Both the position numbers and the translations under genes were made by a program. Under the pieces are notes generated by a model, which saw only the letters and a program-made list of their open reading frames with translations, did no database searches and was not told the origin of the DNA. DNA of 55,105 nt from a virus, in UHGV virus genome UHGV-0308106. One strand, 5' to 3'. How positions within the stretch are numbered: the first letter of the stretch is position 1; every line of letters starts with the position of its first letter. Below, piece after piece: positions 15,130 to 39,802 of this stretch.

Positions 15130-15266
15130 CATTTGAATCCTGTTTTTCCGATCACCTCCGCGTTCGCTGGCAGCGGCTTCGCTTATACCACTTTCCCGGC
15201 TCTGTGCTAACGGACTACCGGATACTGAAGAATTACGTGAAAACTTATGCTGGAGAAGCGCTATGA
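15126..15266 (+). CDS. ylcG: YlcG-like small protein
   Basis: Hand-translated 46 aa: [50 protein letters not shown] overlaps at both ends. Confidence 0.6.
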
Positions 15267-20587: not shown

Positions 20588-20658
20588 AAAACCTCCTGTA
20601 ATTGGTACATAAACAATATCAACTTTGTTACGCAAAAACTCAATGCCTGGAATTGTTT

Positions 20659-24386: not shown

Positions 24387-25619
24387 ATGAAATATTTTTT
24401 CAATACCCGGCTGGGGGAAACCCGCTATCAGCTGGCTGACGGCTCGCTGTTGTGTAAAGACGTGCCGATAGGTCGAACGGGTAAGCAGCTCTACGGCGCT
24501 GCCGATCTGCCAAACCTCAAACCCGACAAGCTCGGTGAGATAGTCGTAACGCGTTCTCCTGAGCAGGTATTCCATCCGGCCACGCTCGCCTCATTCGAAG
24601 GGATGAGCATCACGATCCTGCATCCTGAAGATGAAAACGGGAATGTGCGGCTGGTAAATCCCGAGAACTGGAAAGAGCTTGCGGTCGGGCATTTTCAGAA
24701 CGTTCGGCGCGGGACTGGTGACCAGTCTGATTTGATGCTGGCAGACCTTATCGTCAAAGACGAAAGCGCCATTCAGCTTATCGAAGATGGTCTGCGCGAA
24801 GTGTCGTGCGGCTATGACGCGGAGTACGAGCAGACCGAGCCAGGTAAAGCCGAGCAGGTCGATATTACCGGAAACCATGTGGCTCTTGTCCCTAAAGGCA
24901 GAGCCGGAAATCGTTGTGCAATTGGAGACAGAGACACAATGGCAAATCAAAAGAAAAGCTGGTGGACCCGCATGCGCACGGCCATCAAAACGGGTGACGC
25001 TGACACCATGAACGAACTGCTGGACTCTGCGCCAGCGGCGGTAACGGGTGACGAAGGGGATCTGCCGAGCGGCGTTAACCTCAACATTAACCTTTCACCG
25101 CAGCAACCATTGCCGGACAAAAAGCCGGAAATGGGCGGAGATCCAACCGGCGACGGCGAGGACGATATCAAAACCTTGCTCAAAGCCCTGCTGGCTAAGC
25201 TCGAAGGAACTGCGACGGGCGATAACGACAATAAGCCTGACGAAAAAGACAAAAAAGATCCGACCGGCGACGGCGAGGACGACGAAGAGGAAACCACGAT
25301 TACCGGTGACTCTGCCTATCGTGCCGAGGTTATCGTCCCGGGTATCGATCTGAGCCGTAAGGTGAAACCGACCGCGTTCAAACGTGATGTGCTGGCTGCC
25401 GCTGACAAAACACTGGTTCGCCAGGTTGTCGGTGATGCGGATATCCGCAAATTGCCCAAGCAATCGGTAGATATGGCGTTTAACGCCGTGTCAGAGATTG
25501 CCAAAGGGCGAAACACCCGCAGCACCACGGGCGATGCACAACGTCCAAATATGGGCATGACCAGCATCGCTTCCCTGAACAAACAAAACGCCGACTTCTG
25601 GTCTAACCGCAAAGGATAA
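24387..25619 (+). CDS. Scaffold protein (DUF2213-type)
   Basis: N-terminal domain, acidic DPTGDGEDD repeats, and a C-terminus reading TTGDAQRPNMGMTSIASLNKQNADFWSNRKG. Confidence 0.8.
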   Translation: MKYFFNTRLGETRYQLADGSLLCKDVPIGRTGKQLYGAADLPNLKPDKLGEIVVTRSPEQVFHPATLASFEGMSITILHPEDENGNVRLVNPENWKELAVGHFQNVRRGTGDQSDLMLADLIVKDESAIQLIEDGLREVSCGYDAEYEQTEPGKAEQVDITGNHVALVPKGRAGNRCAIGDRDTMANQKKSWWTRMRTAIKTGDADTMNELLDSAPAAVTGDEGDLPSGVNLNINLSPQQPLPDKKPEMGGDPTGDGEDDIKTLLKALLAKLEGTATGDNDNKPDEKDKKDPTGDGEDDEEETTITGDSAYRAEVIVPGIDLSRKVKPTAFKRDVLAAADKTLVRQVVGDADIRKLPKQSVDMAFNAVSEIAKGRNTRSTTGDAQRPNMGMTSIASLNKQNADFWSNRKG

Positions 25620-25627
25620 TCCAATGA

Positions 25628-25648
25628 CTGCATATCTGTACCTTATGC
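25628..25648. repeat. Candidate attL of the satellite
   Basis: CTGCATATCTGTACCTTATGC compared with 38350-38370 TTGCATTCCTGTACCGGATGC: 16 of 21 nt match, with a shared CTGTACC core. Confidence 0.55.
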
Positions 25649-25833
25649 AACTAATATCTATTAATCAGTGCGTTATCGTTCGGAATCATACTGCGTTACT
25701 GGCCTGAACCATAAAAATGACACTCCGAACATGTGCGGATTTATTCGCCGGATTTCGCTTTGATTCGGTACGTGAGGGACTAGAGCGAGAATCATGCGCC
25801 GTTTGCATTACATGGTAGCCAGAGAGGTGTTGA

Positions 25834-27063
25834 ATGATTGTTAGGCCACTAACTAACGTCGAAGTGAAAAGCGCGAAGGCACAGGGCAAGGATTTCAGTT
25901 TGCACGATGGTTTCGGTTTGTTGCTTTACATCACAAGCCGGGGCGGTAAGTCATGGCGTTTTCGGTATGTACACCCGGTAACGAAGAAGAGACAAACCTA
26001 TACCATTGGAAGATACCCGGAGTTTACTTTGTCCGAAGCGAGGGAGGAACGTTCGAAACTGCGCCGTATGGTAGCGCGGGGGATAGATCCGAACGAAGTC
26101 AAAAAAGATACCAGGAATGAACAGCGTAAAATGTACGCGCAGTCATTTCAGGCCGTTGCCGATGAATGGCTAAAAATCAAGATTAAAGAAGGTGCGAGAA
26201 GCAACACGCTTGAATCGCACAATGTGACGTTGAAGCATCTTTCCACGATTTTTAGGCATACCACAGTACATAAAATAAACGCAGCCGATACTATTCAGGC
26301 TTTTAAACCTTTCAGGGAAAGGCCATCAACGCTTACGAAAATGGTTATTACCATCAACGCCATAATGGATTATGCGGTAAATATTGGGGTTATTGAGCAC
26401 AACCCACTATCGAAAATTGGTAAAGCATTCCCGGCTGAAAAAAACGAACCAAGAGCGACTTTACAGAAAGAGCGGTTGCCAGAATTTTTAAGCGCATGGA
26501 ACGAGTTGAGCTTATGGGAGCCATCAAAGCTGGCATTATTATTTCAGATCATTACGATGGTCCGACCTTCGGAAGCTGGCGGCGCTCTCTGGAATGAGAT
26601 TGATTTTGATAATTCAATCTGGCAAATCCCTGCAAGCCGGATGAAAGGAAAGCGCCCCCACGTAGTCCCATTATCGAGCCAGGCTATAAACGTGCTTAAA
26701 GAGGCCGAAAAGTGGAAGCGCTGCGATTATGTTTTCCCCTCATGGCGAAAAGAAAATAAGCCGATCTCACGATGTGCGACTCAGGCCGGAATACACAAAA
26801 CGTCGTTTAAAGGAATGATTGTTCCTCATGGGTTCAGGGCGTTGGCATCTACAGTTTTAAATGACGAGGGGTTCAACCCTGATGTGATTGAGGCTGCACT
26901 CGCTCACAAAAGCGCCGATGCGATTCGAAATGTTTATAACCGTAGCGACTATCTGGAAAAACGCCGGGTTTTAATGCAATGGTGGGGGGACTTTATCGAG
27001 GCCGCAGAGCGTGGAGAGATACTGGAGACCAGCGGCGATAAGGGCTTAAGGCTGGTTGTGTAG
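25834..27063 (+). CDS. int: Satellite tyrosine integrase, P4-type
   Basis: LHDGFGLLLYITSRGGKSWRFRY..., HGFRALAST, LAHKSADAIRNVY. Confidence 0.9.
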   Translation: MIVRPLTNVEVKSAKAQGKDFSLHDGFGLLLYITSRGGKSWRFRYVHPVTKKRQTYTIGRYPEFTLSEAREERSKLRRMVARGIDPNEVKKDTRNEQRKMYAQSFQAVADEWLKIKIKEGARSNTLESHNVTLKHLSTIFRHTTVHKINAADTIQAFKPFRERPSTLTKMVITINAIMDYAVNIGVIEHNPLSKIGKAFPAEKNEPRATLQKERLPEFLSAWNELSLWEPSKLALLFQIITMVRPSEAGGALWNEIDFDNSIWQIPASRMKGKRPHVVPLSSQAINVLKEAEKWKRCDYVFPSWRKENKPISRCATQAGIHKTSFKGMIVPHGFRALASTVLNDEGFNPDVIEAALAHKSADAIRNVYNRSDYLEKRRVLMQWWGDFIEAAERGEILETSGDKGLRLVV

Positions 27064-27104
27064 GGCATATCCATTTTTGGATAATTATGATTTCAAACGG
27101 GAAT

Positions 27105-27130
27105 AGCTGGCTTTAAGCCAGCTTTTTTTA
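27105..27130 (+). terminator. Rho-independent terminator after the satellite int
   Basis: AGCTGGCTT-t-AAGCCAGCT followed by a T-run. Confidence 0.8.
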
Positions 27131-27206
27131 TGCCCAAAGCTAACCGGAATGCGTTTTTTTTTATTCAAATCATATATAATCATATCGAATATATACGGAG
27201 GTTTTT

Positions 27207-27419
27207 ATGTCTATAAGTGGCGGTGATATTCTGCTAAAAGGTGAAGTGAAAGCGCGTTTACGTTATCGCTCAGACTCGTCATTCTACGAGTTTCTAAAAG
27301 ACGAGAAAAACGGCTTTCCAATGCCTTTTAAAGTCGGTGGGCGTAACTGCTGGTATGAAGATGAAGTAGATGCCTGGATAAGTAAACAAAGCGAGAAGCG
27401 CGGGATCTGCACATCATGA
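27207..27419 (+). CDS. alpA: AlpA-family regulator/excisionase-like protein
   Basis: LLKGEVKARL..FPMPFKVGGRNCWYEDEVDAWI. Confidence 0.8.
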   Translation: MSISGGDILLKGEVKARLRYRSDSSFYEFLKDEKNGFPMPFKVGGRNCWYEDEVDAWISKQSEKRGICTS

Positions 27420-27440
27420 ATGTTTGCAGATTTGGGAAAG

Positions 27441-27477
27441 AGGGCTTGCTAACGGCTATCCGGGCAAGCCCTTTTTA
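27441..27477. terminator. Bidirectional terminator
   Basis: AGGGCTTGC...GCAAGCCCT followed by TTTTT. Confidence 0.75.
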
Positions 27478-27558
27478 TTGTCAGTGGTGGGGATCTGTAA
27501 CTTACGGCCACCAGCGCCGGTAATCACCTTCTGGCTGGTGGCTTCACTGGCATGGCTA

Positions 27559-27918
27559 TTACGCTGCCGCATCATCTGAATTGAATTCAATGTGAATTCG
27601 GTCATAAGGCAGCACGATTTTTTCGCCGTCTTTGTCCAGAACGCCGCCGTTAAGCAGTGACTGAACATCGTTATAAACACCGCGAAAATCACGGTTAACA
27701 ATGCGTGATAGTTCGCGGATTGATACGGCTTGCGCTCCCTCCATCGCTTTGATGATCTGCCAGCGGTTAGGGGCAAGCATAGTTTTAGCCAGTTGTTCTA
27801 CAGTGGGAAAAATCAGTTCGGAACCGATGAAATCCCCGTTCATTGCGCGGGAGGCGTCGGACATTGCCACCCGGAAAGCATCATCAACGGTCATTACTCT
27901 GACGGTCAGCACTCGCAT
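27559..27918 (-). CDS. wHTH DNA-binding protein, putative antitoxin (TumA-like)
   Basis: ..RWQIIKAMEGAQAVSIRELSRIVNRDFRGVYNDVQSL.. GGAGG ribosome-binding site. Starts 4 nt after the upstream gene. Confidence 0.7.
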   Translation of the reverse strand: MRVLTVRVMTVDDAFRVAMSDASRAMNGDFIGSELIFPTVEQLAKTMLAPNRWQIIKAMEGAQAVSIRELSRIVNRDFRGVYNDVQSLLNGGVLDKDGEKIVLPYDRIHIEFNSDDAAA

Positions 27919-27922
27919 GGTA

Positions 27923-28204
27923 TTACCTCCTCAACAGGTTTATGTCAGCCTGAAAGCTGGCGATCAGGTTCTCAATGGTGGTGAATGTCACCGGATATTC
28001 CCGATCATGGATGTGTTTGTGGTCGCCTTTGCCACGTTCGTTGTCGTAACGCATGACGCACTCGCCATCTACGATGTAGGCCAGACTGTACTTGTATTGG
28101 TGCTGGCTACCTAAAATTGCCGGGTCTACTTCCAGAATGCGGATCGAGGCGAAAGCGTTATCAGCTATCTGGATACGGCGGTTCATCAACTCAACAGCGG
28201 GCAT
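27923..28204 (-). CDS. DUF6516/TumE-like putative toxin
   Basis: YKYSLAYIVDGECVMRYDNERGKGDHKHI motif, recognised from memory. AAGGAG ribosome-binding site. Confidence 0.6.
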   Translation of the reverse strand: MPAVELMNRRIQIADNAFASIRILEVDPAILGSQHQYKYSLAYIVDGECVMRYDNERGKGDHKHIHDREYPVTFTTIENLIASFQADINLLRR

Positions 28205-28220
28205 TGGCTTATCTCCTTGT

Positions 28221-28270
28221 TGATGTAAATAATAACATCACAAACGAATGATGTAAATGATTACATCATT
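28221..28270. promoter_or_regulatory. Two palindromic operators upstream of the TA-like operon
   Basis: TGATGTAAATAATAACATCA (28221-28240) and AATGATGTAAATGATTACATCATT (28247-28270). Confidence 0.55.
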
Positions 28271-28679
28271 GCGGGTAAGTTACCGATGGCATGAACGGTT
28301 CGCTGCTGGTGGCTCTCGATCTCCTGAAAGCTCAGGATATTGCCGGGCATGATTTTAATCGGCGGACTTTTCGGCCGATTGAATACGGGCAGTTCGCTCC
28401 CTGTGTATCGGCTTCGTTTCTGGATGATTCGCGTTTCGTTTCTGGTGAATTCGCATTCGCAATTTGTCCGCGAAGCCTTATCAGGCCTGATTTGAGCGGT
28501 GCTCTCTCTTTGCGAATTCGCAGTTCCATTTCGCACTTTGATTCGCAGTTTTCAAATGTTCCCATTCCGGGGACACGGACGATTAGACAGGTGTTACAAA
28601 CGTTGGTGGTGAAATATCTTCTTGCGCTGGCGGGCACGGTGTGGTTATGATTATTTCGCACCTCACAAAACGGGTGCCG

Positions 28680-28905
28680 GGCGTGAGAACCCGGATAAGG
28701 TCAAAGGCGACAACAGACGCCTATCGCGTCTTTTTTTTGTCGCAATGTCAGTACCCCCATATGTAGCGGCGCAGATCCGCGCACAGAATCAATGGTGGCT
28801 CTGGCAGGGCAGCTTTCGGGCTGGCCGGTTCCCTTTGACGCCGGTATTCTCACCCCTGTCAGTGTCACCACCCTTTAGAGCGTGAGAACTCAGGTGGTGG
28901 CTCCT
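28680..28905 (+). ncRNA. Candidate c4/CI-like antisense-RNA immunity region upstream of the icd-like gene
   Basis: TTCTCAC (28847-28853) and CACCACC (28866-28872) are complementary to GTGAGAA (28882-28888) and GGTGGTG (28893-28899), which lie just 5' of the icd ribosome-binding site. GCGTGAGAAC occurs twice (28681 and 28880). A terminator hairpin plus T8 lies at 28716-28738. Confidence 0.3.
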
Positions 28906-28931
28906 TAAATTAGTCAAAGGAGATCATCATC

Positions 28932-29129
28932 ATGATGACTATCCCTACCCTCGCTCAAACAAAATTCACCTGGCGCTTTCTCGCGCTGAATCGCCACGAT
29001 AAAAAAGCCAAACCTTGCCGTCTGTCCGTTGAGGCTGCGACCGAACGCGAAGCCCGCCGCATCCTTGCGCCGCACTTTATTTTGTCTCTGGCCGCACGTC
29101 TGCCAGTGCCGGAGGTGCGTCATGTTTAA
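28932..29129 (+). CDS. Icd-like cell-division inhibitor family protein
   Basis: FLALNRHDKKAKPCRLSVEAATEREARRILAPHFILSLAARLPV. AAGGAG ribosome-binding site. Confidence 0.65.
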   Translation: MMTIPTLAQTKFTWRFLALNRHDKKAKPCRLSVEAATEREARRILAPHFILSLAARLPVPEVRHV

Positions 29130-30000
29130 CCTCCAGACACTGACAGCTAAAGCCCGTGAGCTGCGCGGCAACGTCGTTAAAGCGGCGAGCACAAAGGGAA
29201 GTCGCACCATGACTCCTGTCTATGACCGTGACGAGCAGCGCAAGCTACGCGAGCGCATCCAGCAGACACAGCCCGATTGGGTGTTGCTCTGGTGGGATAT
29301 TGCGACCGTAACCGGCTGGCGTACCAGCGACGTTTGCAACCTGCGCTATTCCTGCGTCAATTGGGAAACGGGGCAGGCGACAATTATCGTTGCCAAGCAG
29401 ACCAAAGCCGCCGAAGCGCGGGCAACCCGCAAAGGTATTGAAATTGTGCGCCAGCAGCGCAAGGACGCCGCGCGGCTCGCCGCTGACCATATCGCCTACA
29501 TGAAGTGGGATAGTATCGGTTGTGACGAACTGGCCGCCGATATGAACGACGAGGAACAGGCGATTGTGTTCGGGCTGGTGGCAAAGGCTGACGTCAAGCA
29601 CGACACCAAACAGTTACCGCCCGGCATTATCAAGCGGCTGCGTGACCGTCAGGATCGGAATCTGGTGGAGGACGACCTGGTATTTTCACGCTCTCAAATC
29701 GAAAGTAACCGTTGTCAACGTCTGGAAGGTAGCGTTACTCGCCAAACCATCTGGCGCAAACTTCATGGCGTCATGGCGTGGTTTACCCGTTTCATTAACG
29801 CTAAATTGCGCCTGAGCGCGTACTCAAGCCGAAAAATAGCAGCCTTTAATCTTATGTCCGCAGGTGGCGAACAGGGATTATTGGTGGCTTCTGAAATGCT
29901 GGGGCATAGCAACCCGGCGATAACTCGCACTTACCTTCAATTAGGCAGCAAAGCCGCCGCTATCCAGTCCCGTTTAGCAATGGAGGTGTGCCATGCGTAA
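29122..30000 (+). CDS. Tyrosine-recombinase-fold protein (atypical)
   Basis: TGWRTSD (R), YSSRK in place of HxxR, and LGHSNPAITRTYLQ (H..Y). GGAGGTG ribosome-binding site. Confidence 0.6.
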   Translation: MFNLQTLTAKARELRGNVVKAASTKGSRTMTPVYDRDEQRKLRERIQQTQPDWVLLWWDIATVTGWRTSDVCNLRYSCVNWETGQATIIVAKQTKAAEARATRKGIEIVRQQRKDAARLAADHIAYMKWDSIGCDELAADMNDEEQAIVFGLVAKADVKHDTKQLPPGIIKRLRDRQDRNLVEDDLVFSRSQIESNRCQRLEGSVTRQTIWRKLHGVMAWFTRFINAKLRLSAYSSRKIAAFNLMSAGGEQGLLVASEMLGHSNPAITRTYLQLGSKAAAIQSRLAMEVCHA

Positions 30001-30172
30001 TCTCTTTCATATCACTGGCTACGCCGTCAATAAACGCGGCCTGACAGTCGGTTTTAGCTATCTCATCGACGCCGAGGACGCCATGCAGGCAAAAGTTAAT
30101 GCCATTGCTGAGGCGAAAGACGATGAACTCACCCACGTATCTATTGCCCGTATTCTGGAGGTGGCAGCATGA
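29993..30172 (+). CDS. Hypothetical 59-aa protein
   Basis: Hand-translated, beginning MRNLFHITGYAVNKRG. GGAGG ribosome-binding site. ATGA overlap with the next gene. Confidence 0.55.
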   Translation: MRNLFHITGYAVNKRGLTVGFSYLIDAEDAMQAKVNAIAEAKDDELTHVSIARILEVAA

Positions 30173-30381
30173 GCAAAGTATCCCTGGCCGATTCAACCTG
30201 CCGTATCCAACAGGCGCAGGAAGTCCTGTCTCTCTGGCTTGAGGCGACGAATAAAAACGATAGCGGCACGGCTAAATTAATCGGCGCAATCATTTCCCTT
30301 CTGGATGGTATCCCCGAATTGATGGATTCAGTAGAGGATGAATTGGCTGGCATGGACTTAAAAGCGATGGATAAAGCATGA
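30169..30381 (+). CDS. Hypothetical 70-aa protein
   Basis: Translationally coupled ORF. Confidence 0.6.
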   Translation: MSKVSLADSTCRIQQAQEVLSLWLEATNKNDSGTAKLIGAIISLLDGIPELMDSVEDELAGMDLKAMDKA

Positions 30382-31004
30382 GCAACGTAGAGAAATTCAC
30401 ACCGGGAAATGCCGACTTATTACACGCCGAAGCCACACCGCACGGCGTAAACATCATGACCCGCAATGATGCCGGGATGTATGAGCATGTAGCCATTATC
30501 ACCTATGAGAGCGCTGTAAGCCGTCTGGATGCGGGAGAGTACGACGATACGCCAGATATCGGCTACGCCATTCATTTTGCCGTTGCTGATGGCGGGGCGC
30601 GTGGCTGGTTCGACTTTACCGCGCAGCATGAAGTAACCATGTGGCGCTGGCTGATTGCTGCGACGTTCGTTTCTGAGATGAAGCGCGAAAACGGCACAAC
30701 CTCCGTCACGGAGGCTGACGGCACAACATCGCAGGTGGCGATTTACTCCAATGGTAATGCGGGCATGGTGATTTACCCGTTTGCTGAACGGCTGGCGATG
30801 GCGAACAACATCGAGGGCGCAATGATTGAGCGATACGGCGTCGAACAGGGTACGGAAAAAGCCATTGTGTTTTATCAGGCCATGCTGGATACGGAGCGCG
30901 GCGAGCTTACCCCGTTCGGACGTGAAACGCTGGCAGAGCTACACGATCACTTCATTGCTGATCTGGATGAAAACGGCTGGCCTGAAATGCCAGCGGCGCA
31001 CTGA
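30378..31004 (+). CDS. Hypothetical 208-aa protein
   Basis: Coupled ORF upstream of the primase gene. Confidence 0.65.
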   Translation: MSNVEKFTPGNADLLHAEATPHGVNIMTRNDAGMYEHVAIITYESAVSRLDAGEYDDTPDIGYAIHFAVADGGARGWFDFTAQHEVTMWRWLIAATFVSEMKRENGTTSVTEADGTTSQVAIYSNGNAGMVIYPFAERLAMANNIEGAMIERYGVEQGTEKAIVFYQAMLDTERGELTPFGRETLAELHDHFIADLDENGWPEMPAAH

Positions 31005-31016
31005 GGGAGCGACACA

Positions 31017-33797
31017 ATGCGTAATATCGACCTTATCCGCGAAGTGACCAGCGCCGCAGCAGGGCGCTGGCCTTATGTGCTGGCTGGGTTGTCTATCGAC
31101 GTGCCTGATTCATCGCGCCGCCATTCTCCATGCCCTGCATGTGGTGGAAAAGACCGTTTCAGATTCGACGACAACGGGCGCGGTAGCTTTATCTGCAACC
31201 AGTGTGGCGCTGGTGACGGGCTGGATTTAATCAAGCGGGTTAACAACTGCGACACTACGGAGGCGGCACAGCTTGCCGCTGACGTGCTGGGTATTGATTA
31301 CCGGGCAGCGCAATCCGACCCGGTGGCAGCGAGCCATATAAGGGAGCAACTGGAAGCTGACCGCCAGCAGCGTGAGCAGGAGCGCCAGAAACAGGCAGCA
31401 GGGGACGCAGAGCAGCGAAGGGCTACGTTTGCCCGTCTGTATGCCGGAATGCGCCAGAGTGCCACACAGGGCGAATCTGATTACCTGCAATCAAAAGGGC
31501 TGACCGGGTTTAACTATCCGGTTATGCCTGATGGTTCGTTATTGCTGGAGCTGGTGGACGAATCCGGCGCAGTGGCAGCAGCGCAAACCATTACACCGCA
31601 GGGAGAGAAGCGACTCCTGACAGGTTCAGCAAAGCGCGGGGCATATCACGCCGTAAACGCGCCAGAATCGCCGCAGAGCGTTTTAATTGCCGAGGGGCTG
31701 GCGACGGCCCTTTCAGTTCACCTGATGCGCCCGGACGCGCTGGCAGTGGCAGCAATTGACGCGGGCAACCTGCTACCCGTTGCCGAAGTGATGCGCCGGA
31801 AGTACCCACAGGCACAAATCATCATTGCCGCAGATAACGACCAGATGGGCGAAAGTGACGGAATTAAAGGAGTGAAAGTTAACACTGGCAAGGAGGCCGC
31901 AGAGAAAGCCGCGAAAGCCGTTTCTGGCTGGGTTTCCATGCCACCAGTGGACTATAAAGCGGACTGGAACGACTACCACCAGCAATACGGCCTCGAAGCG
32001 GCCACAGCAGCATTTAACGACTCAATGTATCAACCGGAGGGTAAGAAAGTGGGTGCGACACTGACAGCTATCGACGGCGGCAAGAAAAAACTTGGTATCG
32101 ACGACGATCTGAAACCGCGAGTAGAGAGCCGTGCGGATGGCATTCACTGGATCACCCCGAAAGTGGACAAAGACACAGGAGAAATTATCAATACCGAGGC
32201 GTGGCTATGCTCTCCGCTGGAGATTGCTGGTGCGGGGAGTGATAACGCCAGACAGCGCTTTCTGATCCTGCGTTGGGACGTCCCCGGCAACCGGGGGCAA
32301 GTTACCCGTGCGCTTCCATGGGAGGACATTGGCGACCGTGAGGGATGGCGCACGCTGAAAAACGGCGGTGTCAGTGTGACAACCAAACCATCGTTGCGGG
32401 CAATTCTGGCCGACTGGCTGCAGCGAACTGGTAGCGGCAAGGAATGGCAGATCAGCCACACCACAGGCTGGCACAACGGGGCGTACATCATGCCGGATGG
32501 TGATGTTATTGGTGAGCCAGAGATACCGCTGTTATTCAGTGGTCGGAGTGCGGCGGCTGGTGGCTATACCGTCAGTGGAACGCCGGAAAGCTGGCGTGAT
32601 TCGGTGGCGCGTCTTGCGCTGGGAAACCCGTCAATGATGCTGGGCGTTGCTGCTGCGCTTTCTGCGCCGCTGATCGGGCTTGTTGGCGCTGACGGGTTCG
32701 GCGTGCATCTTTTCGAGCAGTCCAGCGCAGGGAAGACAACCACCGCCAACATTGCCAGCAGTTTATACGGTGAACCGGATGCCTTGCGCCTTACCTGGTA
32801 CGGTACAGCGCTGGGTATCGCCAACGAAGCGGAAGCGCATAACGACAGCCTGTTACCGCTGGATGAAGTGGGGCAGGGCAGTAGCGCCAAAGACGTTGCT
32901 ACGTCTGCTTACACGCTGTTTAACGGTGCCGGAAAGCTACAGGGGGCCAAGGAGGGCGGCAACCGTGAGTTAAAGCGCTGGCGCACCGTGGCGATCAGTA
33001 CCGGGGAAATGGACATTGAGACGTTTCTTTCTGCTGGTGGGCTGAAAGTTAAGGCCGGGCAACTGGTGCGATTGCTTAATTTACCGATGGAGAAATCAGT
33101 AACGCACCATGAGTACCAGAACGGGAAGCAACACGCCGACGCACTCAAAGAGGCTTACCAGACGAACCACGGAGCCGCAGGCCGTGAATGGATTAAATGG
33201 CTTGCAGGCCACCAGCAGGAGGCAAAACAAGCTGTCAGGGCGGCGCAAGAGCGCTGGCGCAGTCTTATCCCCGCTGATTATGGCGAACAGGTTCATCGTG
33301 TCGGTGAGCGGTTCGCCATTCTGGAGGCGGCGCTGGTGCTGGGGATGCCTGTCACTGGTTGGGGGGAGCAGGAAAGTCGGGACGCTATCCAGCATGGCTT
33401 TAATGCTTGGGTAAAAGAGTTTGGCACGGGGAACCGTGAGCATAAGCAGATCATCGAGCAGGCAGAGGCGTTTCTTAATGCCTACGGCATGAGCCGTTTC
33501 GCGCCGTTCCCGTATAGCCCGGCTGACATGCCGATCCGGGATTTAGCCGGATACCGTCAGAAAGGTGAGCATGACGAAAGCCCCGTAGTGTTCTACACCT
33601 TTCCGGCTGCGTTCGAAAAGGAGATAGCGCAGGGCTTTAATGCGAAACAGTTTGCCCGTGTGCTGGCCGGGGCTGGGGTACTGAAACCGCCAGCCAGCGG
33701 AAGGGGATATCAGCGTAAATCCCCGCGAATTGATGGACGCCAGATAAACGTTTATGTGCTCCAGCTACGACCCGACGAGATAGAGGGCGAAGAATAA
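31017..33797 (+). CDS. Primase-helicase (P4 alpha-like): zinc ribbon, Toprim and P-loop helicase
   Basis: CPACGGKDRFRFDD..CNQCG; LIAEGLATALS..AADND; Walker A SSAGKTT. Confidence 0.9.
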   Translation: MRNIDLIREVTSAAAGRWPYVLAGLSIDVPDSSRRHSPCPACGGKDRFRFDDNGRGSFICNQCGAGDGLDLIKRVNNCDTTEAAQLAADVLGIDYRAAQSDPVAASHIREQLEADRQQREQERQKQAAGDAEQRRATFARLYAGMRQSATQGESDYLQSKGLTGFNYPVMPDGSLLLELVDESGAVAAAQTITPQGEKRLLTGSAKRGAYHAVNAPESPQSVLIAEGLATALSVHLMRPDALAVAAIDAGNLLPVAEVMRRKYPQAQIIIAADNDQMGESDGIKGVKVNTGKEAAEKAAKAVSGWVSMPPVDYKADWNDYHQQYGLEAATAAFNDSMYQPEGKKVGATLTAIDGGKKKLGIDDDLKPRVESRADGIHWITPKVDKDTGEIINTEAWLCSPLEIAGAGSDNARQRFLILRWDVPGNRGQVTRALPWEDIGDREGWRTLKNGGVSVTTKPSLRAILADWLQRTGSGKEWQISHTTGWHNGAYIMPDGDVIGEPEIPLLFSGRSAAAGGYTVSGTPESWRDSVARLALGNPSMMLGVAAALSAPLIGLVGADGFGVHLFEQSSAGKTTTANIASSLYGEPDALRLTWYGTALGIANEAEAHNDSLLPLDEVGQGSSAKDVATSAYTLFNGAGKLQGAKEGGNRELKRWRTVAISTGEMDIETFLSAGGLKVKAGQLVRLLNLPMEKSVTHHEYQNGKQHADALKEAYQTNHGAAGREWIKWLAGHQQEAKQAVRAAQERWRSLIPADYGEQVHRVGERFAILEAALVLGMPVTGWGEQESRDAIQHGFNAWVKEFGTGNREHKQIIEQAEAFLNAYGMSRFAPFPYSPADMPIRDLAGYRQKGEHDESPVVFYTFPAAFEKEIAQGFNAKQFARVLAGAGVLKPPASGRGYQRKSPRIDGRQINVYVLQLRPDEIEGEE

Positions 33798-33821
33798 AAC
33801 ACACATACGAGATGTTTTTTT

Positions 33822-34114
33822 GTTGGTTCAGTTGGTTCAGTAACTATTTAATTAAGATAAGTATATGTATTTAATATATTTCTATACCCATAAGTGAACC
33901 AACACTGAACCAACAAATACCCATTTTGAACCAACAAATGCCGCTATTGAACCAACGCCCTTTTCTGGCTGGCCTGTAAATCTTTCCCACTGAACCAACA
34001 CGAAAATAGCGTTTGTTGGTTCAAAACAAGGCTTTGTTGGTTCACTCCTCAAGAAATAATCCTTACAAAACAACAATCTTTACAAATTGAACCAACTGAA
34101 CCAACTGAACCAAC
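33822..34114. repeat. Satellite replication origin: 12 copies of TGAACCAAC plus an AT-rich tract
   Basis: Forward copies at 33895, 33906, 33927, 33948, 33991, 34088, 34097 and 34106. Inverted copies at 33822, 33831, 34015 and 34036. AT-rich tract at 33841-33890. Confidence 0.8.
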
Positions 34115-34221
34115 ATGTTTTTGTTTATCTATAGAGTTTTTTCGGAGAGTAATTACGAATTTGGAGGGGCATCGCCTAAGCGACAGTATGCGGAAACGGC
34201 AACTTTGCGGAGCGGAAAAGA

Positions 34222-34252
34222 AAAAGCCCGCGCTGGAGAGGCGAGGGCTTTT
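34222..34252 (+). terminator. Rho-independent terminator
   Basis: AAAGCCC...GGGCTTT followed by a T-rich tail. Confidence 0.6.
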
Positions 34253-34397
34253 GTTAACCATGTTTATGCAATCACACAATGGTGGATCACCGTCATAGTA
34301 CCACGTCGATTTATCATTTCAATGTACGCAATGATGTTTACTAATATTGCAATTTATGCAATGATCAGAATTTAAACAACGCAAAAGGTTATGAACA

Positions 34398-34961
34398 ATG
34401 AAACAGATAACCAATGTTAATCTGGAAAGTGATAACGCTGGTGGTACAGTCGAGGTGACTTACTCCGATGATACGTTCGAAAGGCTGACCTGTTCGCTGC
34501 CTGTGGCTCTCGTCATTGCGAACCTTGCAACGACGCTTAAGCAGGAACGTGCAACACGCATTGCAACCGGCGACCGCCTGCGCCGGATGTATACCCGCGA
34601 TAGTGACATGATTACCCGCAGCGGCAGCGGCGCTTCTACGACCTCCACCGCGCCAACGTCAATGGACGCTGAATTTATGCGCCTGGTACGCGCTGTAGCA
34701 CCAAAGTATGACAACGCCCTTCCTGATACCGATCCTCGCCTTGTTGCGCTTGATGTGCTGCGTTACGCACCCGCTGAGGCATTCAGTGCGGTACACCCGA
34801 CCCCGCTATCAGAGATTCAGCTTGATCAGGCTATCGACGTTCTGGAACAGGTTGGCGACTACATGCGAGTTAACAACGTTTCACCGAAGATTCTCACCAC
34901 AGGCGACGCCATTCGCAGCATTAACACCGACAACGCCAGTTTCTGGCATCGCACGAAGTAA
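34398..34961 (+). CDS. Satellite protein ending in a helper-scaffold-like tail (candidate alternative scaffold / capsid-size redirector)
   Basis: The C-terminus TTGDAIRSINTDNASFWHRTK parallels the helper scaffold TTGDAQRP..SLNKQNADFWSNRKG. Confidence 0.7.
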   Translation: MKQITNVNLESDNAGGTVEVTYSDDTFERLTCSLPVALVIANLATTLKQERATRIATGDRLRRMYTRDSDMITRSGSGASTTSTAPTSMDAEFMRLVRAVAPKYDNALPDTDPRLVALDVLRYAPAEAFSAVHPTPLSEIQLDQAIDVLEQVGDYMRVNNVSPKILTTGDAIRSINTDNASFWHRTK

Positions 34962-34973
34962 GGAGCAATGAGC

Positions 34974-35162
34974 ATGGCTATTTATGACCCGAAATTAGCA
35001 GCAGGAAACCCGCAAAGCGCCGGGCGTAAACTCTTTGGCCGTGAACAGGCCGAGCAATTGCGGATGCGTAACAACTTCAACAACGAATGCCGCAATCTGG
35101 AAAAAGTCAACGAAGCGAATGCAAAGTTCTGGAGTGAACAGGATGAAAAAGCCAAACGTTAA
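34974..35162 (+). CDS. Small protein carrying a second scaffold-tail-like motif
   Basis: ..LEKVNEANAKFWSEQDEKAKR. An AAGGAG lies 9 nt before the ATG at 34974. Confidence 0.55.
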   Translation: MAIYDPKLAAGNPQSAGRKLFGREQAEQLRMRNNFNNECRNLEKVNEANAKFWSEQDEKAKR

Positions 35163-35310
35163 GCCGGTATTACTCTCTGGCGACCAGTTCGCCGCAATCT
35201 GCAAGATCCAGGAGCGCGAACGCCAGCGCTCCGATATTGGCGTAGCGCCGTCTGTCCATCAAATTGCCCGTGGGCTGGTGGCGAAAGCGCTGGCATCAAT
35301 TCAGGAATAA
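35143..35310 (+). CDS. Hypothetical 55-aa protein, possibly a small DNA-binding protein
   Basis: MKKPNVKPVLLSGDQFAAICKIQERER..SVHQIARGLVAKAL. The RHH-like reading is speculative. Confidence 0.45.
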   Translation: MKKPNVKPVLLSGDQFAAICKIQERERQRSDIGVAPSVHQIARGLVAKALASIQE

Positions 35311-35315
35311 CGACT

Positions 35316-36383
35316 ATGTCATATAACTGGATGCGCCATTTCGAGCTACAGCTCATCGATGAGAATGGCAAAGGAATTAGCCTTAGTGATTTCAAAGTTA
35401 CCTTTGATATAGAGCGTAACGATAACAAATGGCCAGCTGTTGCGACGGTCAAGATCTACAACCTTTCACCAACTACTCAGAACCGTATTATGCAACGTGA
35501 GTTTGCCAAAATTGTGTTGATAGCGGGGTATGATGGTCGTGCGCAGGATGTAAGGGCAAGTGATGTGGGGATTGCACGTGAAATATCAGCAAGCGAAGTG
35601 GGCCAGGCTAACGGCGCAAACTACGGAGTCATTTTCAGCGGTGATATCCGCTTCACTGTGACCGGAAAAGATAACCCTGTCGATTCATGGGTACAGGTGC
35701 AGGCTTGTGACTCTGTGGAGGCGTTTACCAGCGCATTTATCAACACCACTATCAGCAAAGGCTACACCACAGAAGATATTTATGTTGAGCTTATGAAAAG
35801 GCTGGAACCTTACGGCATTTCTCGCGGTATTGTTCCTGAATTCCCGGCAACGGTATTTCCTCGCGGTCGAGCCCTCTTTGGCTATGTCCATAACTATCTC
35901 GATGAAGTGGCCGCGCAGTGCAAAGCCACTTGGCAATTCAACTATGGAAAAGTCGATATTGTTCCCAGAGACAAGGCCACTCATGAAGCTGTGGTTCTCA
36001 ACGCTAATACCGGGCTTATCGGTATGCCTCAGCAGACCATCGGTGCGGGTGTGAATGTCAAATGCCTGATTAACTCACGGATTCACCTGAACGGGCTTAT
36101 CCAACTGGATCAGGCTTCGGTATATCGTAGCGCCTTATCTGCGGATCAAATTGCCCAAGCTGGTGGGCCAATTTCGGTGGAAAGCCAAAACGGAAACCTT
36201 GTCACTACTGGATTAACGCAGAGTCCGGCGAGCATTGCTACCGATGGTATCTATAAGGTTCGGTATATCAGTTACACGGGCGACACGCGCGGTCAAGCGT
36301 GGTATATGGATCTGGCGTGTGAGGCTCGCGGGAATTCTGATTTATTTTCAAGTTCATTTATGAATAAGCAGAGTGAAGAATGA
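35316..36383 (+). CDS. Baseplate hub protein, satellite paralog of 47472-48536
   Basis: Colinear over its full length with the helper protein (MSYNWMRHFELQL.. against MSLNWMRHFELQL..). Roughly 60% identical by eye. Confidence 0.8.
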   Translation: MSYNWMRHFELQLIDENGKGISLSDFKVTFDIERNDNKWPAVATVKIYNLSPTTQNRIMQREFAKIVLIAGYDGRAQDVRASDVGIAREISASEVGQANGANYGVIFSGDIRFTVTGKDNPVDSWVQVQACDSVEAFTSAFINTTISKGYTTEDIYVELMKRLEPYGISRGIVPEFPATVFPRGRALFGYVHNYLDEVAAQCKATWQFNYGKVDIVPRDKATHEAVVLNANTGLIGMPQQTIGAGVNVKCLINSRIHLNGLIQLDQASVYRSALSADQIAQAGGPISVESQNGNLVTTGLTQSPASIATDGIYKVRYISYTGDTRGQAWYMDLACEARGNSDLFSSSFMNKQSEE

Positions 36384-36724
36384 AGAAGATTATTTTACTG
36401 ATTGGTTTATTGGGCGCATCTGGAAGTCATGCTGCGCAGGTTATTACCATGCAGTGCGGAAACTTTCGCTTTGAGATGATAGAAAACTCGATGGCGAGAA
36501 TTAATGGTGAGTATGTAACATCTCAGAAAATTACAGAGTTCGGACAGAACGGGGCAAAAGTAGAAATGACGCTTATGCCTGCCAGCGATGGGAATCTGTA
36601 TGGGTTTGAATACATCCATCCTGACGGTAGCAAAAAGCGCTGGCTGAATGTTGAGCTTATCCGCACCAATATGAATCAGGCGCGGATCATTGGCTCGTTT
36701 GATTGTAAGCGCGTGAAGGGGTAA
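36380..36724 (+). CDS. Secreted small protein, satellite paralog of 48549-48893
   Basis: Signal peptide ending SHA/AQ. Conserved QCGxF near the mature N-terminus and DC(K/R)(R/K)VK at the C-terminus. Confidence 0.7.
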   Translation: MKKIILLIGLLGASGSHAAQVITMQCGNFRFEMIENSMARINGEYVTSQKITEFGQNGAKVEMTLMPASDGNLYGFEYIHPDGSKKRWLNVELIRTNMNQARIIGSFDCKRVKG

Positions 36725-36732
36725 GGGGAATC

Positions 36733-37395
36733 ATGCCATTCATTCGACCCGCAAATGAGCAGGATGTAACACAGCTTGTTCAGGACAATGCTAAAGCATC
36801 TGTAACCAATGCGTTACCTGGCATTATTCGTTCGTTCGATCCCGAAACTGTCACCTGCGATGTTGATATAGCCATTACGGCAAGAATGACGAAGGCTGGC
36901 ACAATGGGTGAAGATTTCCAGTATGAGTCCGTCCGCTATCCGATTCTTAACGATTTGCCTGTGGTTTTTCCGCGCGGGGGCGGAGTTACGCTTACTTTCC
37001 CGGTTAAAGATGGTGATGAATGCCTCATCGTATTCTCTTCGCGTTCGATTGATTTCTGGTGGCAGAACGGCGGTGTGCAGGAGCGAGCTGATGGGCGTAT
37101 TTTAGATCTGTCTGATGCGTTCGTTATTCCTGGCCCCCAATCACAGGTAAAGAAGATATCCAATATCAGTACCAACGCTGCGCAGCTGCGTACAGATGAT
37201 GGAGCGGCATTTGTAGAGGTGTCCGCTGGTGGAGCCATTACTATTACCAGCTCTCAAATCACCCTTAACGGGCCCGTGCAGGTAAACGGAACGATCACTT
37301 CCACTGGCGACCAAACGGCCAACGGTATCAGCCAGATTAACCATACCCACGGCGGCGTACAATCAGGCGGCAGCAACACAGGAAAACCACAATGA
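36733..37395 (+). CDS. Central tail spike (Gp138-N / gpV-like), satellite paralog of 49430-50170
   Basis: PGIIRSFDPETVTC..FPRGGG.TLTFPVK.GDECL..DFWWQ.GGVQ, and an apex reading HTHGGVQSGG. Confidence 0.8.
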   Translation: MPFIRPANEQDVTQLVQDNAKASVTNALPGIIRSFDPETVTCDVDIAITARMTKAGTMGEDFQYESVRYPILNDLPVVFPRGGGVTLTFPVKDGDECLIVFSSRSIDFWWQNGGVQERADGRILDLSDAFVIPGPQSQVKKISNISTNAAQLRTDDGAAFVEVSAGGAITITSSQITLNGPVQVNGTITSTGDQTANGISQINHTHGGVQSGGSNTGKPQ

Positions 37396-37571
37396 GCAAT
37401 ATTGAAAAACTGAAACCAGAAGAAAGCGGATCCAGCCAGAATGGTAAGGTTCGTACCTGGCTGGATGATATCAACGGGCAGCCGGAACCAGATGGTATTG
37501 GCAGCTTCGGTGAGAGTGCGATCTGCGAAGAATCACGCACAGCGGAAACCATGCGAAATAACGTAGGGTGA
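37392..37571 (+). CDS. Hypothetical acidic 59-aa protein
   Basis: Hand-translated, beginning MSNIEKLKPEESGSSQNGKV. ATGA overlap with the spike stop. Confidence 0.45.
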   Translation: MSNIEKLKPEESGSSQNGKVRTWLDDINGQPEPDGIGSFGESAICEESRTAETMRNNVG

Positions 37572-37598
37572 CGGTCAGATGACGTGATCTGTAACTTT

Positions 37599-37640
37599 AA
37601 GTAGCGGTGCAGGGGCAGAACTCAGCACGCTACTTTTATT
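37599..37640 (+). terminator. Hairpin plus T-rich tail before the satellite terS
   Basis: AAGTAGCG...CGCTACTT followed by TTATTTT. Confidence 0.5.
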
Positions 37641-37661
37641 TTCTTTGTCAAAAGGTGAACA

Positions 37662-38135
37662 ATGGCGGCATTACCAACAATGGCTAAGGTTATGATTATT
37701 CAATCATTAGCTTGCTACGAACCCCCTTCCAGAATCGTTGAGCTTGTAAAACAAGATTTTGGCATCGTCGTTACCCGGCAGCAGATATCGGCCTACAACC
37801 CTGAAAATACAATGGCAAAAAATCTTAGCCAAAAATGGGTAGAACTCTTTAATCACACTCGCGCCCGCTTCCAGAGTGAAATATCCGAGATCCCTATCGC
37901 TAACAAAGCGTACCGGCTGCGTATGCTCGATCGCATGGCTAACCGTGCAGAGGCAATCAAGAATTACGCATTAACAGCGCAGCTTATTGAACAGGCCGCG
38001 AAAGAGTGCGGGGACGCTTACACCAACAAATTAAAGGTTGAAACAACGGGTAAAGATGGTGGTCCGATCAGAACGGAAACAACGAACTTAACCGCCGAAG
38101 AAGCCGGGGAGGCATACCGCAAATTTATGGGATAA
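37662..38135 (+). CDS. terS: Terminase small subunit (DUF2280-type), satellite paralog
   Basis: Same length (157 aa) as the helper TerS. The C-terminal half is close to identical (LTAQLIEQAAKE.GDAYTNKLKVE.TGKDGGPI.TETTNLTA) and the N-terminal part is diverged. Confidence 0.8.
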   Translation: MAALPTMAKVMIIQSLACYEPPSRIVELVKQDFGIVVTRQQISAYNPENTMAKNLSQKWVELFNHTRARFQSEISEIPIANKAYRLRMLDRMANRAEAIKNYALTAQLIEQAAKECGDAYTNKLKVETTGKDGGPIRTETTNLTAEEAGEAYRKFMG

Positions 38136-38349
38136 CCACCAGCGCCGTGACACGTCACACGCAAAAATAGCACCGCCCATTAATGGGCTGGTGGCACAGC
38201 TTGCATATTGAAATTCCCTGTAAATCTTACAGATCTGGTATTGAGTAACTTACCCCATTCAGCGCCATACATCACAGAGCAGCCTATGGACTACACACAA
38301 AATCAGGCTGCAAATAAATCCTTATATTTCAGTTGATTAAATAATAGCC

Positions 38350-38370
38350 TTGCATTCCTGTACCGGATGC
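38350..38370. repeat. Candidate attR of the satellite
   Basis: Partner of 25628-25648. It overlaps the resumed reading frame of the cement gene. Confidence 0.55.
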
Positions 38371-38849
38371 CTGTTGGCATTGCCGGGGCTATCTCTCGCC
38401 CGCAGGACTTAACCGTCGAACCGGTGATCCTTAAATCCGCTAACGCCTTCGCTGCCTATGGTCTGGCTGGCAAATATGACGCTGACGGCTTTTTCGTGCC
38501 GCTGGCGGACGGTGACACCGCCGACAAGGTGAAGGGGATCTACGTTCGTCCGTATCCGACCACATCGCAGCCAGACATGGTTCGCCAGGTGGGGACGGAT
38601 AAGAACTTCCCGGGTGACGCCATGAAGCGTGGCTACATGACCGTTAATCTCGGTTCTGATTTTGATGCCAGCACCATCAAAAAAGGCGACCCGGTATACG
38701 TTGTCGTCTCCACTGATGAATCCATAAAAGTGCCGCTGGGCGGCTTCATGTCCACGTCCGTCAGTGGCAAAAACGTGGCGCTGACCAACGCCGAATTCAC
38801 AGGGGCCGGTGACGCTAACGGCAATGTAGAAATCTCCTGGAAGATTTAA
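38367..38849 (+). CDS. Capsid cement/decoration protein, with its native 5' end apparently displaced by the insertion
   Basis: Lies between the scaffold and the major capsid gene. There is no SD before the ATG at 38367. The frame upstream reads AFLYR, matching MTAYLY.. at 25624. Confidence 0.7.
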   Translation: MPVGIAGAISRPQDLTVEPVILKSANAFAAYGLAGKYDADGFFVPLADGDTADKVKGIYVRPYPTTSQPDMVRQVGTDKNFPGDAMKRGYMTVNLGSDFDASTIKKGDPVYVVVSTDESIKVPLGGFMSTSVSGKNVALTNAEFTGAGDANGNVEISWKI

Positions 38850-38860
38850 GGAACAGACAA

Positions 38861-39802
38861 ATGATTACTTTTGATCAGGCAACCGTAGATAGCTCCGGTG
38901 CCTTTCTCATCGGGGAGCTGGAGCGACTCGACCAGACGCTGAACCTGCCTCTGGTGGGGTACACCTGGACCCGAGATATTCAACTGCGTGAAGACGTGTC
39001 TATCGCAGATGACATTTCCAGCTGGACGAATACCAGCTTCGCCGCTGCGGGTACTGGTGCAAATCCGAATGGTAAAAACTGGGTAGGCAAAGACTCCACC
39101 GCTATTGCTGGCGTGAACGTGGATATCAGCAAAGACGGCAATCCACTGAACCTCTGGGGTATGGAACTGGGCTGGACCGTTGTAGAGCTGGCAGCTGCTC
39201 AGCAGGTAGGCCGCCCGATTGATACCCAGAAGTACGACGGGATGCAGCTCAAATGGCAGATGGACAACGACGAGCAGGTTTACATCGGTGATGACGCACT
39301 CGGCCTGAAAGGTCTGGCAAACCTCGTCGGTGTGACGCTGAACAACGCGCCGAAGACCTGGGCGAACTCAACCAACGACGAGATCCTCGATAGCGTGAAC
39401 AGCATTCTGTCTAATGCCTGGGCAGCATCCGGTTATTCCATCGTGCCTTCTGATCTGCGCATTCCGCCAGAGCAGTATTCACTGCTGGCGAGCCGTAAGG
39501 TTTCCGAAGCGGGTAACCAGTCACTGCTGACCTATCTGGCTGTGAACACTATCGCTTTCCACCAGAACGGCGTTCCGCTTGAAATCAAAGCGGTCAAATG
39601 GCTGAAAGGGCGTGGGGTTGGCGGTAAAGACCGTATGATCGCCTACACCAACGACAAGAAATACGTGCGCTATCCGCTGGTGCCGTTGCAGAGCGTTCCT
39701 GTCCAGTATCGCGGTCTGTATCAGATTGCGACCTACTACGGCAAGCTCGGTGCGGTTGAGCCAGTGTACAAAGAAACCCTGTCCTACGTGGACGGTATCT
39801 GA
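38861..39802 (+). CDS. Major capsid protein (DUF2184-type)
   Basis: 313 aa. Position and family are recalled from the DUF2213-cement-capsid gene order. Confidence 0.8.
   Translation: MITFDQATVDSSGAFLIGELERLDQTLNLPLVGYTWTRDIQLREDVSIADDISSWTNTSFAAAGTGANPNGKNWVGKDSTAIAGVNVDISKDGNPLNLWGMELGWTVVELAAAQQVGRPIDTQKYDGMQLKWQMDNDEQVYIGDDALGLKGLANLVGVTLNNAPKTWANSTNDEILDSVNSILSNAWAASGYSIVPSDLRIPPEQYSLLASRKVSEAGNQSLLTYLAVNTIAFHQNGVPLEIKAVKWLKGRGVGGKDRMIAYTNDKKYVRYPLVPLQSVPVQYRGLYQIATYYGKLGAVEPVYKETLSYVDGI

Follow-up and report, generated by a model that had tools for sequence, protein, structure and literature searches.

Two proteins of a prophage-borne satellite share the C-terminal motif of the helper scaffold and are candidate alternative scaffolds for capsid-size redirection

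Two satellite proteins carry the tail motif of the helper scaffold

Two adjacent genes of a satellite element in the UHGV virus genome UHGV-0308106 encode proteins that share a short C-terminal motif with the scaffold of the helper prophage in which the satellite resides. The window, by which we mean the whole analysed stretch of 55,105 nucleotides, contains a SEN34 / Omnitron / yong1-type prophage of a temperate myovirus, and the satellite lies between the scaffold and cement genes of this prophage. Judged from sequence comparison, the tail sharing is real, extends across three otherwise unrelated protein families and is unlikely to be due to chance. We propose, by analogy with known satellites, that the two proteins would dock in the helper procapsid through the copied tail as alternative scaffolds and thereby redirect capsid size, a reading to which we give slightly under an even chance. 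The genes and motifs concerned are as follows; the coordinates and sequences stated in a preliminary description of this DNA were all correct.

24387-25619, forward strand: helper DUF2213 head protease/scaffold, 410 amino acids (aa) (Pfam DUF2213, E = 9e-42; PHROG head maturation protease)
25566-25601: C-terminal motif of the helper scaffold, IASLNKQNADFW
34398-34961, forward strand: satellite 187-aa protein, whose C-terminal helix carries TTGDAIRSINTDNASFW (motif at 34911-34946)
34968-35162, forward strand: satellite small protein, 64 aa as listed, carrying LEKVNEANAKFWSEQ (motif at 35097-35132)

The small protein is probably 62 aa long, with its start at 34974. The motif Φ-x-x-Φ-N-x-x-N/A-x-x-F-W occurs near the C-termini of all three proteins and is preceded by a TTGDA element in the scaffold and the 187-aa protein. 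The preliminary description had placed it at the extreme C-terminus, which is not right for the small protein, where nine further residues follow. In BLASTP comparisons, the scaffold and the 187-aa protein matched at their C-termini only (TTGDA...N..NA.FW, 13/30 identical, E = 0.003), and the 64-aa protein matched the scaffold over a short segment (6/16 identical, E = 0.018).

Because these single comparisons were weak, four further tests were made. The helper scaffolds by themselves sufficed to define the motif, as their tails listed below show. The pattern [ILMV]..[ILMV]N..[NA]..[FILY]W, which was defined in part after the data were seen, matched exactly three of the 1,290 six-frame open reading frames (ORFs) of the window (78,679 residues), namely the scaffold, the 187-aa protein and the 64-aa protein; 0.046 matches were expected by chance, and none of 2,000 shuffles reached three. 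A profile built from four helper-type scaffold tails, with no satellite sequence included, was then searched against the same ORFs; the scaffold itself came first, and the next best matches were the 64-aa ORF (E = 3.8e-4) and then the 187-aa ORF (E = 0.2). In the reciprocal direction, the small-protein tail retrieved the scaffold (E = 0.013) and the 187-aa tail retrieved the small protein (E = 0.007); self-matches aside, the small protein was the reciprocal best match of the scaffold-tail profile. Finally, hhalign alignments against the scaffolds ran to the C-termini for both the small-protein family (P = 2e-4) and the 187-aa family (P = 6e-4 over 52 columns). The tail likeness proposed earlier was thus borne out by alignment and by profile search.

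The profile alignments extended upstream of the motif, pairing VGDYMKANN with VSEIAKGRN for the 187-aa family and EAAKARNN with SEIAKGRN for the small protein. The earlier statement that the likeness is confined to the tail and the rest of each protein is unrelated agreed with the BLASTP match of the 187-aa protein, which covered C-termini only; its extent needs revision, since in the 187-aa protein the likeness may span about 50 residues and not about 20. The DUF2213 domain (PF09979) was found by Pfam in neither satellite protein, and the likeness to the scaffold was limited to the last 20-50 residues.

An explanation without any assembly function would hold that the resemblance is chance, that it is an inert relic left by the capture of a scaffold 3' end, or that the 187-aa protein is a transcription regulator; taken together, we consider this very improbable. 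Chance has in its favour that the statistics are based on short segments, and against it stand the shuffles, of which none gave three matches, together with the conservation described below.

The motif is conserved across helper and satellite families

The diversity of the tail was gathered from phage records and from individual loci; an initial scan of viral contigs with the scaffold had yielded only relatives at least 96% identical, and a homologue search with the last 105 residues of the scaffold gave gene fragments only. Representative scaffold tails are listed here by phage type.

SEN34 type: SIASLNKQNADFWSNRKG
yong1: SISDLNKANAEFWANRKG
Mulock / Klebsiella prophage: TIAGMNQAAQEFWSKRG
Burkholderia Magia: TIADINEQNRKFWAGQSNQ
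Bordetella IFTN9: TAAEINARNRAHWDGRSAK

Across the clade of SEN34, Mulock, Magia and IFTN9 scaffolds, whose overall identity is just 35-57%, the tryptophan of the motif was invariant. In the 187-aa family, W183 was one of 14 invariant columns, and the motif tryptophan remained invariant or near-invariant down to about 30% identity. The motif was best kept in the most divergent members of this family, which end in ..RINKINADNDKFWNKGNQ and ..LEGINEANRKFWNRGKQS, and the tail of one member (P0084), ..LEGINEANRKFWNRG, can be set beside that of the Magia scaffold, ..IADINEQNRKFWAGQ. In the small-protein family, R34 and W55 were the only invariant columns. The tryptophan belongs to the few invariant columns of each of the three families.

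This conservation bears on the relic explanation. With the satellite integrated about 25 nt beyond the scaffold gene, an imprecise excision event might in principle pick up part of that gene. Against a relic or chance, the motif is conserved in both satellite families across genera and in elements at unrelated sites (tRNA-Thr, a major facilitator superfamily (MFS) transporter gene and the capsid gene), and the two genes have a central place in the element and do not adjoin its scaffold-proximal end. A captured scaffold 3' end was rejected as the sole explanation, as the genes are internal and are kept in elements at unrelated sites.

The tails of helpers and satellites also showed suggestive, though not strict, co-variation at the sequence level. 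TTGDA was found only in SEN34-/yong1-type helpers and in 187-aa proteins of the Escherichia/Citrobacter/Salmonella type, and in none of the Klebsiella-type partners. SEN34-type helpers (TTGDA...NKQNADFW) house satellites whose 187-aa protein has TTGDA...N[TA]DNASFW, and Klebsiella FW-type helpers (..GMNQAAQEFW) house small proteins ending ..NINQSNKDFW. The sole IW-type small protein with an adjacent helper (..QDINKVNKDIW) resides in a helper whose tail is likewise of the IW type (..ADINKAAKEIW). Strict co-variation at the position preceding the tryptophan (F, I or L) was rejected: there is this one IW/IW pair, but LW-type helpers occur with FW-type satellites.

Across Klebsiella-type helpers (loci L146-L221), the residue before the scaffold-tail tryptophan gave FW at 37 loci, LW at 20 and IW at 18. 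This polymorphism is natural material for probing docking specificity.

The two proteins form a conserved pair with no detectable known fold

The AlphaFold2 (AF2) model of the 187-aa protein, of moderate confidence (predicted local distance difference test, pLDDT, 68), comprised three strands, a long helix (residues 34-70), a disordered linker and a helical domain (91-159), followed by a separate, flexible C-terminal helix of low confidence (168-183) that bears the motif. The small protein was modelled as a disordered N-terminus and one long helix (residues 23-61, pLDDT 82). The 187-aa family comprised 40 clusters at 90% identity, all from Enterobacterales. A profile search of 1.84 billion representative proteins returned 15 clusters, all of the same narrow family, and no link to a known family. 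The 187-aa protein had no match in Pfam, NCBIfam or PDB sequences, and Foldseek against the PDB found nothing at E <= 0.001; the small protein likewise had no counterpart in Pfam, NCBIfam or PDB folds, and its family profile found nothing among PDB sequences.

Many members of the 187-aa family are labelled 'XRE family transcriptional regulator' at NCBI, a name that favours a regulatory role. It has no detectable basis: an XRE/HTH_3 identity was rejected, with no Pfam or NCBIfam match even at E <= 1, no helix-turn-helix in the AF2 model and nothing significant in Foldseek against the PDB.

The genes of the 187-aa and small proteins were adjacent in every relative examined, whatever its integration site or accessory genes, and the pair is therefore a core module of the satellite family, at the head of the morphogenetic operon. 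It was also present in relatives that have no baseplate genes (a Rahnella element) or that carry Terminase_2 instead of DUF2280.

Proposed redirection of capsid assembly and alternative explanations

C-terminal coat-binding ends are the rule for the scaffolds of P22, phi29, P2 (gpO) and herpesviruses. We propose that, upon helper induction, the 187-aa and 62/64-aa proteins would be expressed as a pair from the satellite morphogenetic operon. The copied tail, a predicted amphipathic helix, would dock at the procapsid site meant for the scaffold tail, most probably on the inner face of the major capsid protein. The satellite proteins would thereby compete with or replace the helper scaffold, and shell assembly would be redirected. 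The expected product would be a small capsid, probably T=4, that fits the 12.7-kb satellite and excludes the helper genome of about 42 kb, and the satellite's TerS-like DUF2280 protein would steer packaging. It is likely that the copied tail is a docking motif. That its target is the coat protein seems somewhat better than evenly balanced, and a change of capsid size as the outcome, plausible by analogy with CpmB, is somewhat less likely than not.

The pair is tightly packed, its genes overlapping or nearly touching, ahead of the hub/spike and TerS-like genes, which argues for a role in assembly rather than in regulation. Capsid-size redirection is also fitted by the satellite having its own TerS-like gene, by the place of the pair in a structural operon and by the size ratio. 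Related helper phages measure 40.7-43.7 kb against 12,722 bp for the satellite, a ratio of about 30% like that of P4/P2 and SaPI1/80alpha, just as the preliminary description had given it.

The same sequence facts would fit a second explanation, in which the proteins are interference decoys: through the tail mimic, one or both proteins would occupy the scaffold-tail site or the recognition site of the protease, block assembly or maturation of the helper procapsid and lower helper yield with no change of size, and the satellite would travel as a multimer in normal heads. This has in its favour that the small protein consists of little besides the tail module on one helix, that three copies of a satellite with about one third of the helper size can fill a full head, and that the helper protein is a protease-scaffold fusion, so that a tail mimic could also titrate the protease. 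More than simple competition is suggested, however, by two conserved proteins, one of them with a sizeable conserved 187-aa body, and we regard decoys as unlikely.

Also in keeping with these sequence facts, the tail might instead be a cargo signal that loads the 187-aa protein, and perhaps the small one, into helper-built heads for delivery to the next host, for example as an establishment or anti-defence factor. The conserved globular helical domain of the 187-aa protein would suit such a role, and capsid-targeting C-terminal tails exist in HK97-fold systems (the HK97 protease tail, P22 scaffold fusions and encapsulin cargo peptides). A cargo role leaves the second, tail-only protein unexplained, and no enzymatic or DNA-binding domain was detected in Pfam, NCBIfam, PDB sequences or Foldseek; we consider it improbable, more so than decoys.

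Several observations weigh against the tail-docking scaffold reading. The pairwise statistics are each modest (E or P from 1e-2 to 2e-4, over short segments), and the scaffold-tail profile alone places the 187-aa ORF at just E = 0.2. The FW tail is missing from the more distant DUF2213 scaffolds of Pam3, ZF40, JD001 and DE15, instead of a hydrophobic residue the 187-aa tails of the Klebsiella clade have R or A before the tryptophan, and two LW-type helpers each share a contig with a satellite whose small protein is of the FW type. Multimers of a genome one third of the helper size could also be packaged in full-size heads. Moreover, the only solved DUF2213 scaffold, Pa193 gp24 (PDB 9B40), contacts the capsid by way of an internal helix-turn-helix (residues 286-326), which plugs the five-fold vertex (PMC11456595). 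In a profile alignment, this helix-turn-helix aligned to helper residues ~255-280 (DDIKTLLKALLAKLEGTA, window ~25150-25230) and not to the helper tail, and the helper scaffold probably has at least one capsid contact there besides its C-terminal tail. In Pa193, unassigned helices of about 16 residues are reported under the hexons (PMC11456595).

The element is a genuine helper-dependent satellite

The element at 25643-38364 is a genuine helper-dependent satellite, as had been claimed for it, because it has integrase, AlpA-like and primase genes and iterons, is flanked by direct repeats, has a matching empty site, lacks any capsid, portal, TerL, sheath or tube gene, and has relatives at other sites. 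In E. coli WEM25, the unoccupied site has the sequence ..GGATAATCCAATGACTGCATATCTGTACC/GGATGCCTG.., the slash marking the junction. The features of the satellite are listed here.

25643-38364, forward strand: whole satellite, 12,722 bp, with direct repeats CTGTACC at 25636-25642 and 38358-38364
25834-27063, forward strand: satellite integrase (Pfam)
27207-27419, forward strand: satellite AlpA-like excisionase/regulator (Pfam)
28658-28736, forward strand: isrK-like RNA (Rfam 61 bits, above the gathering score)
28788-28875, forward strand: C4 antisense RNA (Rfam 79 bits, above the gathering score)
29122-30000, forward strand: 292-aa protein with a partial tyrosine-recombinase domain, a second recombinase-like gene beside the terminal integrase
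31017-33797, forward strand: satellite primase/helicase with Zn-ribbon, Toprim and DUF927 domains (Pfam)
33820-34115, no strand assigned: iteron cluster, about 12 copies of TGAACCAAC / GTTGGTTCA, direct and inverted, read straight from the sequence
35143-35310, forward strand: 55-aa basic protein (MKKPNVKPVLLSGDQFAAICKIQERERQ...), overlapping the end of the small-protein gene
35316-37571, forward strand: satellite tail-tip gene block, including a 59-aa ORF
35316-36383, forward strand: satellite baseplate hub, 63% identical to helper 47472-48536 (Pfam/PHROG matches for the block)
36380-36724, forward strand: satellite 114-aa protein, 31% identical to helper 48549-48893
36733-37395, forward strand: satellite spike, 51% identical to helper 49430-50170
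37662-38135, forward strand: satellite DUF2280 protein, 64% identical to helper 19876-20349

The satellite is integrated in codon 7 of the helper cement gene, in the orientation of the helper late operon. The insertion takes the start codon and ribosome-binding site off the cement gene and separates it and the capsid gene from the scaffold gene, and helper head production probably depends on satellite excision. Among 338 E. coli genomes with this SEN34-type prophage, the scaffold gene is directly followed by the cement gene in 334, and an insertion at the scaffold/cement site was found in the other four.

In the left arm, the isrK-like and C4 RNA families are ones that we take to be linked to immunity regions of the P1/P7/P4 type; if that link holds, this arm would be a P4-like immunity region. 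The 292-aa recombinase-like protein was kept in all relatives. The iteron cluster sits between the primase gene and the 187-aa gene and, from its repeat structure, is probably the replication origin of the satellite; a terminator-like hairpin follows at ~34205-34245. TTTATGCAAT occurs twice (34263 and 34353) just upstream of the 187-aa gene. As a shared promoter motif it was rejected, with no enrichment in the window (5 matches against 4.7 expected), and scans for sigma-70 promoters and terminators were uninformative.

The right arm forms a packed operon in the order 187-aa, 62/64-aa, 55-aa, hub, 114-aa, spike and 59-aa ORF, and then, after a short gap, DUF2280. The 55-aa protein had no Pfam match and has orthologues at the same position in EC2001 and in two relatives (Salmonella L090, and L102). 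Four genes of this arm (hub, 114-aa protein, spike and DUF2280) are diverged copies of helper genes. The homologue of the DUF2280 protein in the EC2001 helper is annotated as terminase small subunit, and in L102 Terminase_2 stands at the DUF2280 position; from this context, the satellite DUF2280 protein is a probable small-terminase-like packaging specificity factor.

Relatives of the satellite occupy several integration sites

The relatives are elements with integrase, AlpA and primase genes, of roughly 11-15 kb as estimated from gene coordinates, and were found in Escherichia, Citrobacter, Salmonella, Klebsiella, Hafnia and Rahnella. Other E. coli strains and an Apirhabdus genome carry them at the cement-gene site, and E. 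coli G5 carries one in tRNA-Thr. Relatives of the Klebsiella and Hafnia types interrupt the helper major capsid gene in its middle (L005, at 2516-2977 and 15175-15735; L119, L120 and L122-L126), splitting it at about codon 131, around ..QLKW. Two Klebsiella relatives (L003, L006) lie inside an MFS transporter gene and are of the same type as those that split the capsid gene. The primase of the Klebsiella relatives has Zn_Ribbon_Prim, Toprim, D5_N and Pox_D5 domains, a layout that we take to be that of P4 alpha. Additional tail genes were seen in some relatives: a Dit-like gene and a plug in EC2001 and Klebsiella, and a 661-aa tape-measure-like protein in Salmonella (L090, 10910-12895).

Head genes of the helper

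The helper head genes follow the order DUF2280, TerL, portal, minor head, protease/scaffold, [satellite], cement and major capsid. Besides the scaffold gene given above, they are located as follows.

19876-20349: helper DUF2280, directly upstream of TerL
20602-22281: helper TerL
22281-23750: helper portal
23599-24372: helper Mu-F-like minor head protein
38367-38849, forward strand: helper cement gene (Gp24-like), without its first 7 codons and ribosome-binding site, lost to the insertion
38861-39802, forward strand: helper major capsid gene, followed by the tail genes

Comparison with known satellites and significance

The nearest parallel is CpmB of SaPI1, a helical dimer of a 72-residue protein. 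Its C-terminal helix-and-hook, with the motif RIIK, is nearly identical to the one in the 80alpha scaffold; CpmB competes with that scaffold for its site on the coat protein, binds there and forces T=4 shells (PMC5644958). The preliminary description had invoked CpmB for its shared C-terminal coat-binding motif, and the analogy is accurate on that point (PMC5644958). As in SaPI1 CpmB(/CpmA) with 80alpha gp46, a small satellite protein, here one predicted to be helical, shares only the C-terminal motif of the helper scaffold, a motif that binds the coat in the case of CpmB. Both systems also have two adjacent satellite genes and a satellite of about one third of the helper size. Unlike in SaPI1, the tail is carried by both satellite proteins, and unlike in SaPI1/80alpha, the host is Gram-negative, the helper is a myovirus, its scaffold is a DUF2213 protease-scaffold fusion and the motif is Φ-x-x-Φ-N-x-x-N-x-x-F-W. 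No relationship to CpmB in sequence or detectable fold was found in Pfam, PHROG, PDB sequences or Foldseek; any relationship would therefore be one of analogy and not of common descent.

Like P4, the element is a satellite of Enterobacterales with an integrase, an AlpA/Vis-like gene, an alpha-type primase and a C4/CI-type immunity RNA, and like P4 with P2, it has about one third of the size of a temperate myovirus helper whose scaffold is a protease fusion (gpO in P2). It differs in that the helper is of the SEN34/Mulock type and not P2-like, in having TerS-like and baseplate genes that are absent from P4, and in that Sid of P4 is an external scaffold with no likeness to the helper scaffold. 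No match to sid, psu or delta was found among the element ORFs scanned against Pfam and PHROG, a few small ORFs being left unscanned.

The integrase, AlpA and primase backbone and an own packaging-specificity gene are shared with Gram-negative phage-inducible chromosomal islands (PICIs) such as EcCICFT073 and with capsid-forming PICIs. PICIs of the EcCICFT073 type reportedly redirect packaging (through Rpp) with no capsid remodelling. Capsid-forming PICIs have their own capsid and take only tails, unlike the present satellite, which has no capsid genes and carries tail-tip genes and scaffold-tail mimics instead. In the phage-inducible chromosomal island-like element PLE, TcaP remodels the coat protein of phage ICP1 into small capsids (PMC10002752). 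The role proposed here would be analogous, with a satellite protein remodelling the helper coat. TcaP is said to be an external scaffold, and hence not an internal scaffold-tail mimic.

The principle itself was established with CpmB; apparently new here are the two proteins, their motif, the type of helper (a Gram-negative myovirus with a protease-scaffold fusion) and the satellite family. We found no description of this element family in the literature on DUF2213, DUF2280, SEN34 or baseplate-encoding satellites, of which coverage was incomplete, and none in the literature searched of a satellite that carries tail-tip genes or inserts into helper capsid genes. More broadly, and tentatively, the element may represent a new Enterobacterales satellite family with a P4-like replication/immunity backbone and a three-point takeover of SEN34/Mulock-type myoviruses, acting on the capsid (two scaffold-tail mimics), packaging (TerS-like) and the tail tip (hub and spike, with Dit, plug or tape-measure in some), many members being inserted in helper head genes. 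If this three-point takeover is true, helper capsid production would hinge on satellite excision, at cement codon 7 here and at the middle of the capsid gene in Klebsiella and Hafnia.

The ways in which satellites hijack capsids are understood in just a few cases (Sid, CpmAB, Ccm, TcaP and Rcm). Should it be confirmed, the present case would be a second, independently evolved instance of scaffold-tail mimicry, the first in Gram-negatives and the first directed against a protease-scaffold fusion, and would suggest that copying the docking peptide of the helper scaffold is a general route of molecular piracy. For the widespread and poorly characterised DUF2213 scaffold family, the sequence comparisons point to a putative functional docking motif, in which the invariant tryptophan is a target for point mutants.

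A scan of species-representative genomes recovered the system at three loci only, and lysogens with the system in complete genomes were E. coli EC2001, ET791, ABWA45 and ECONIH5.

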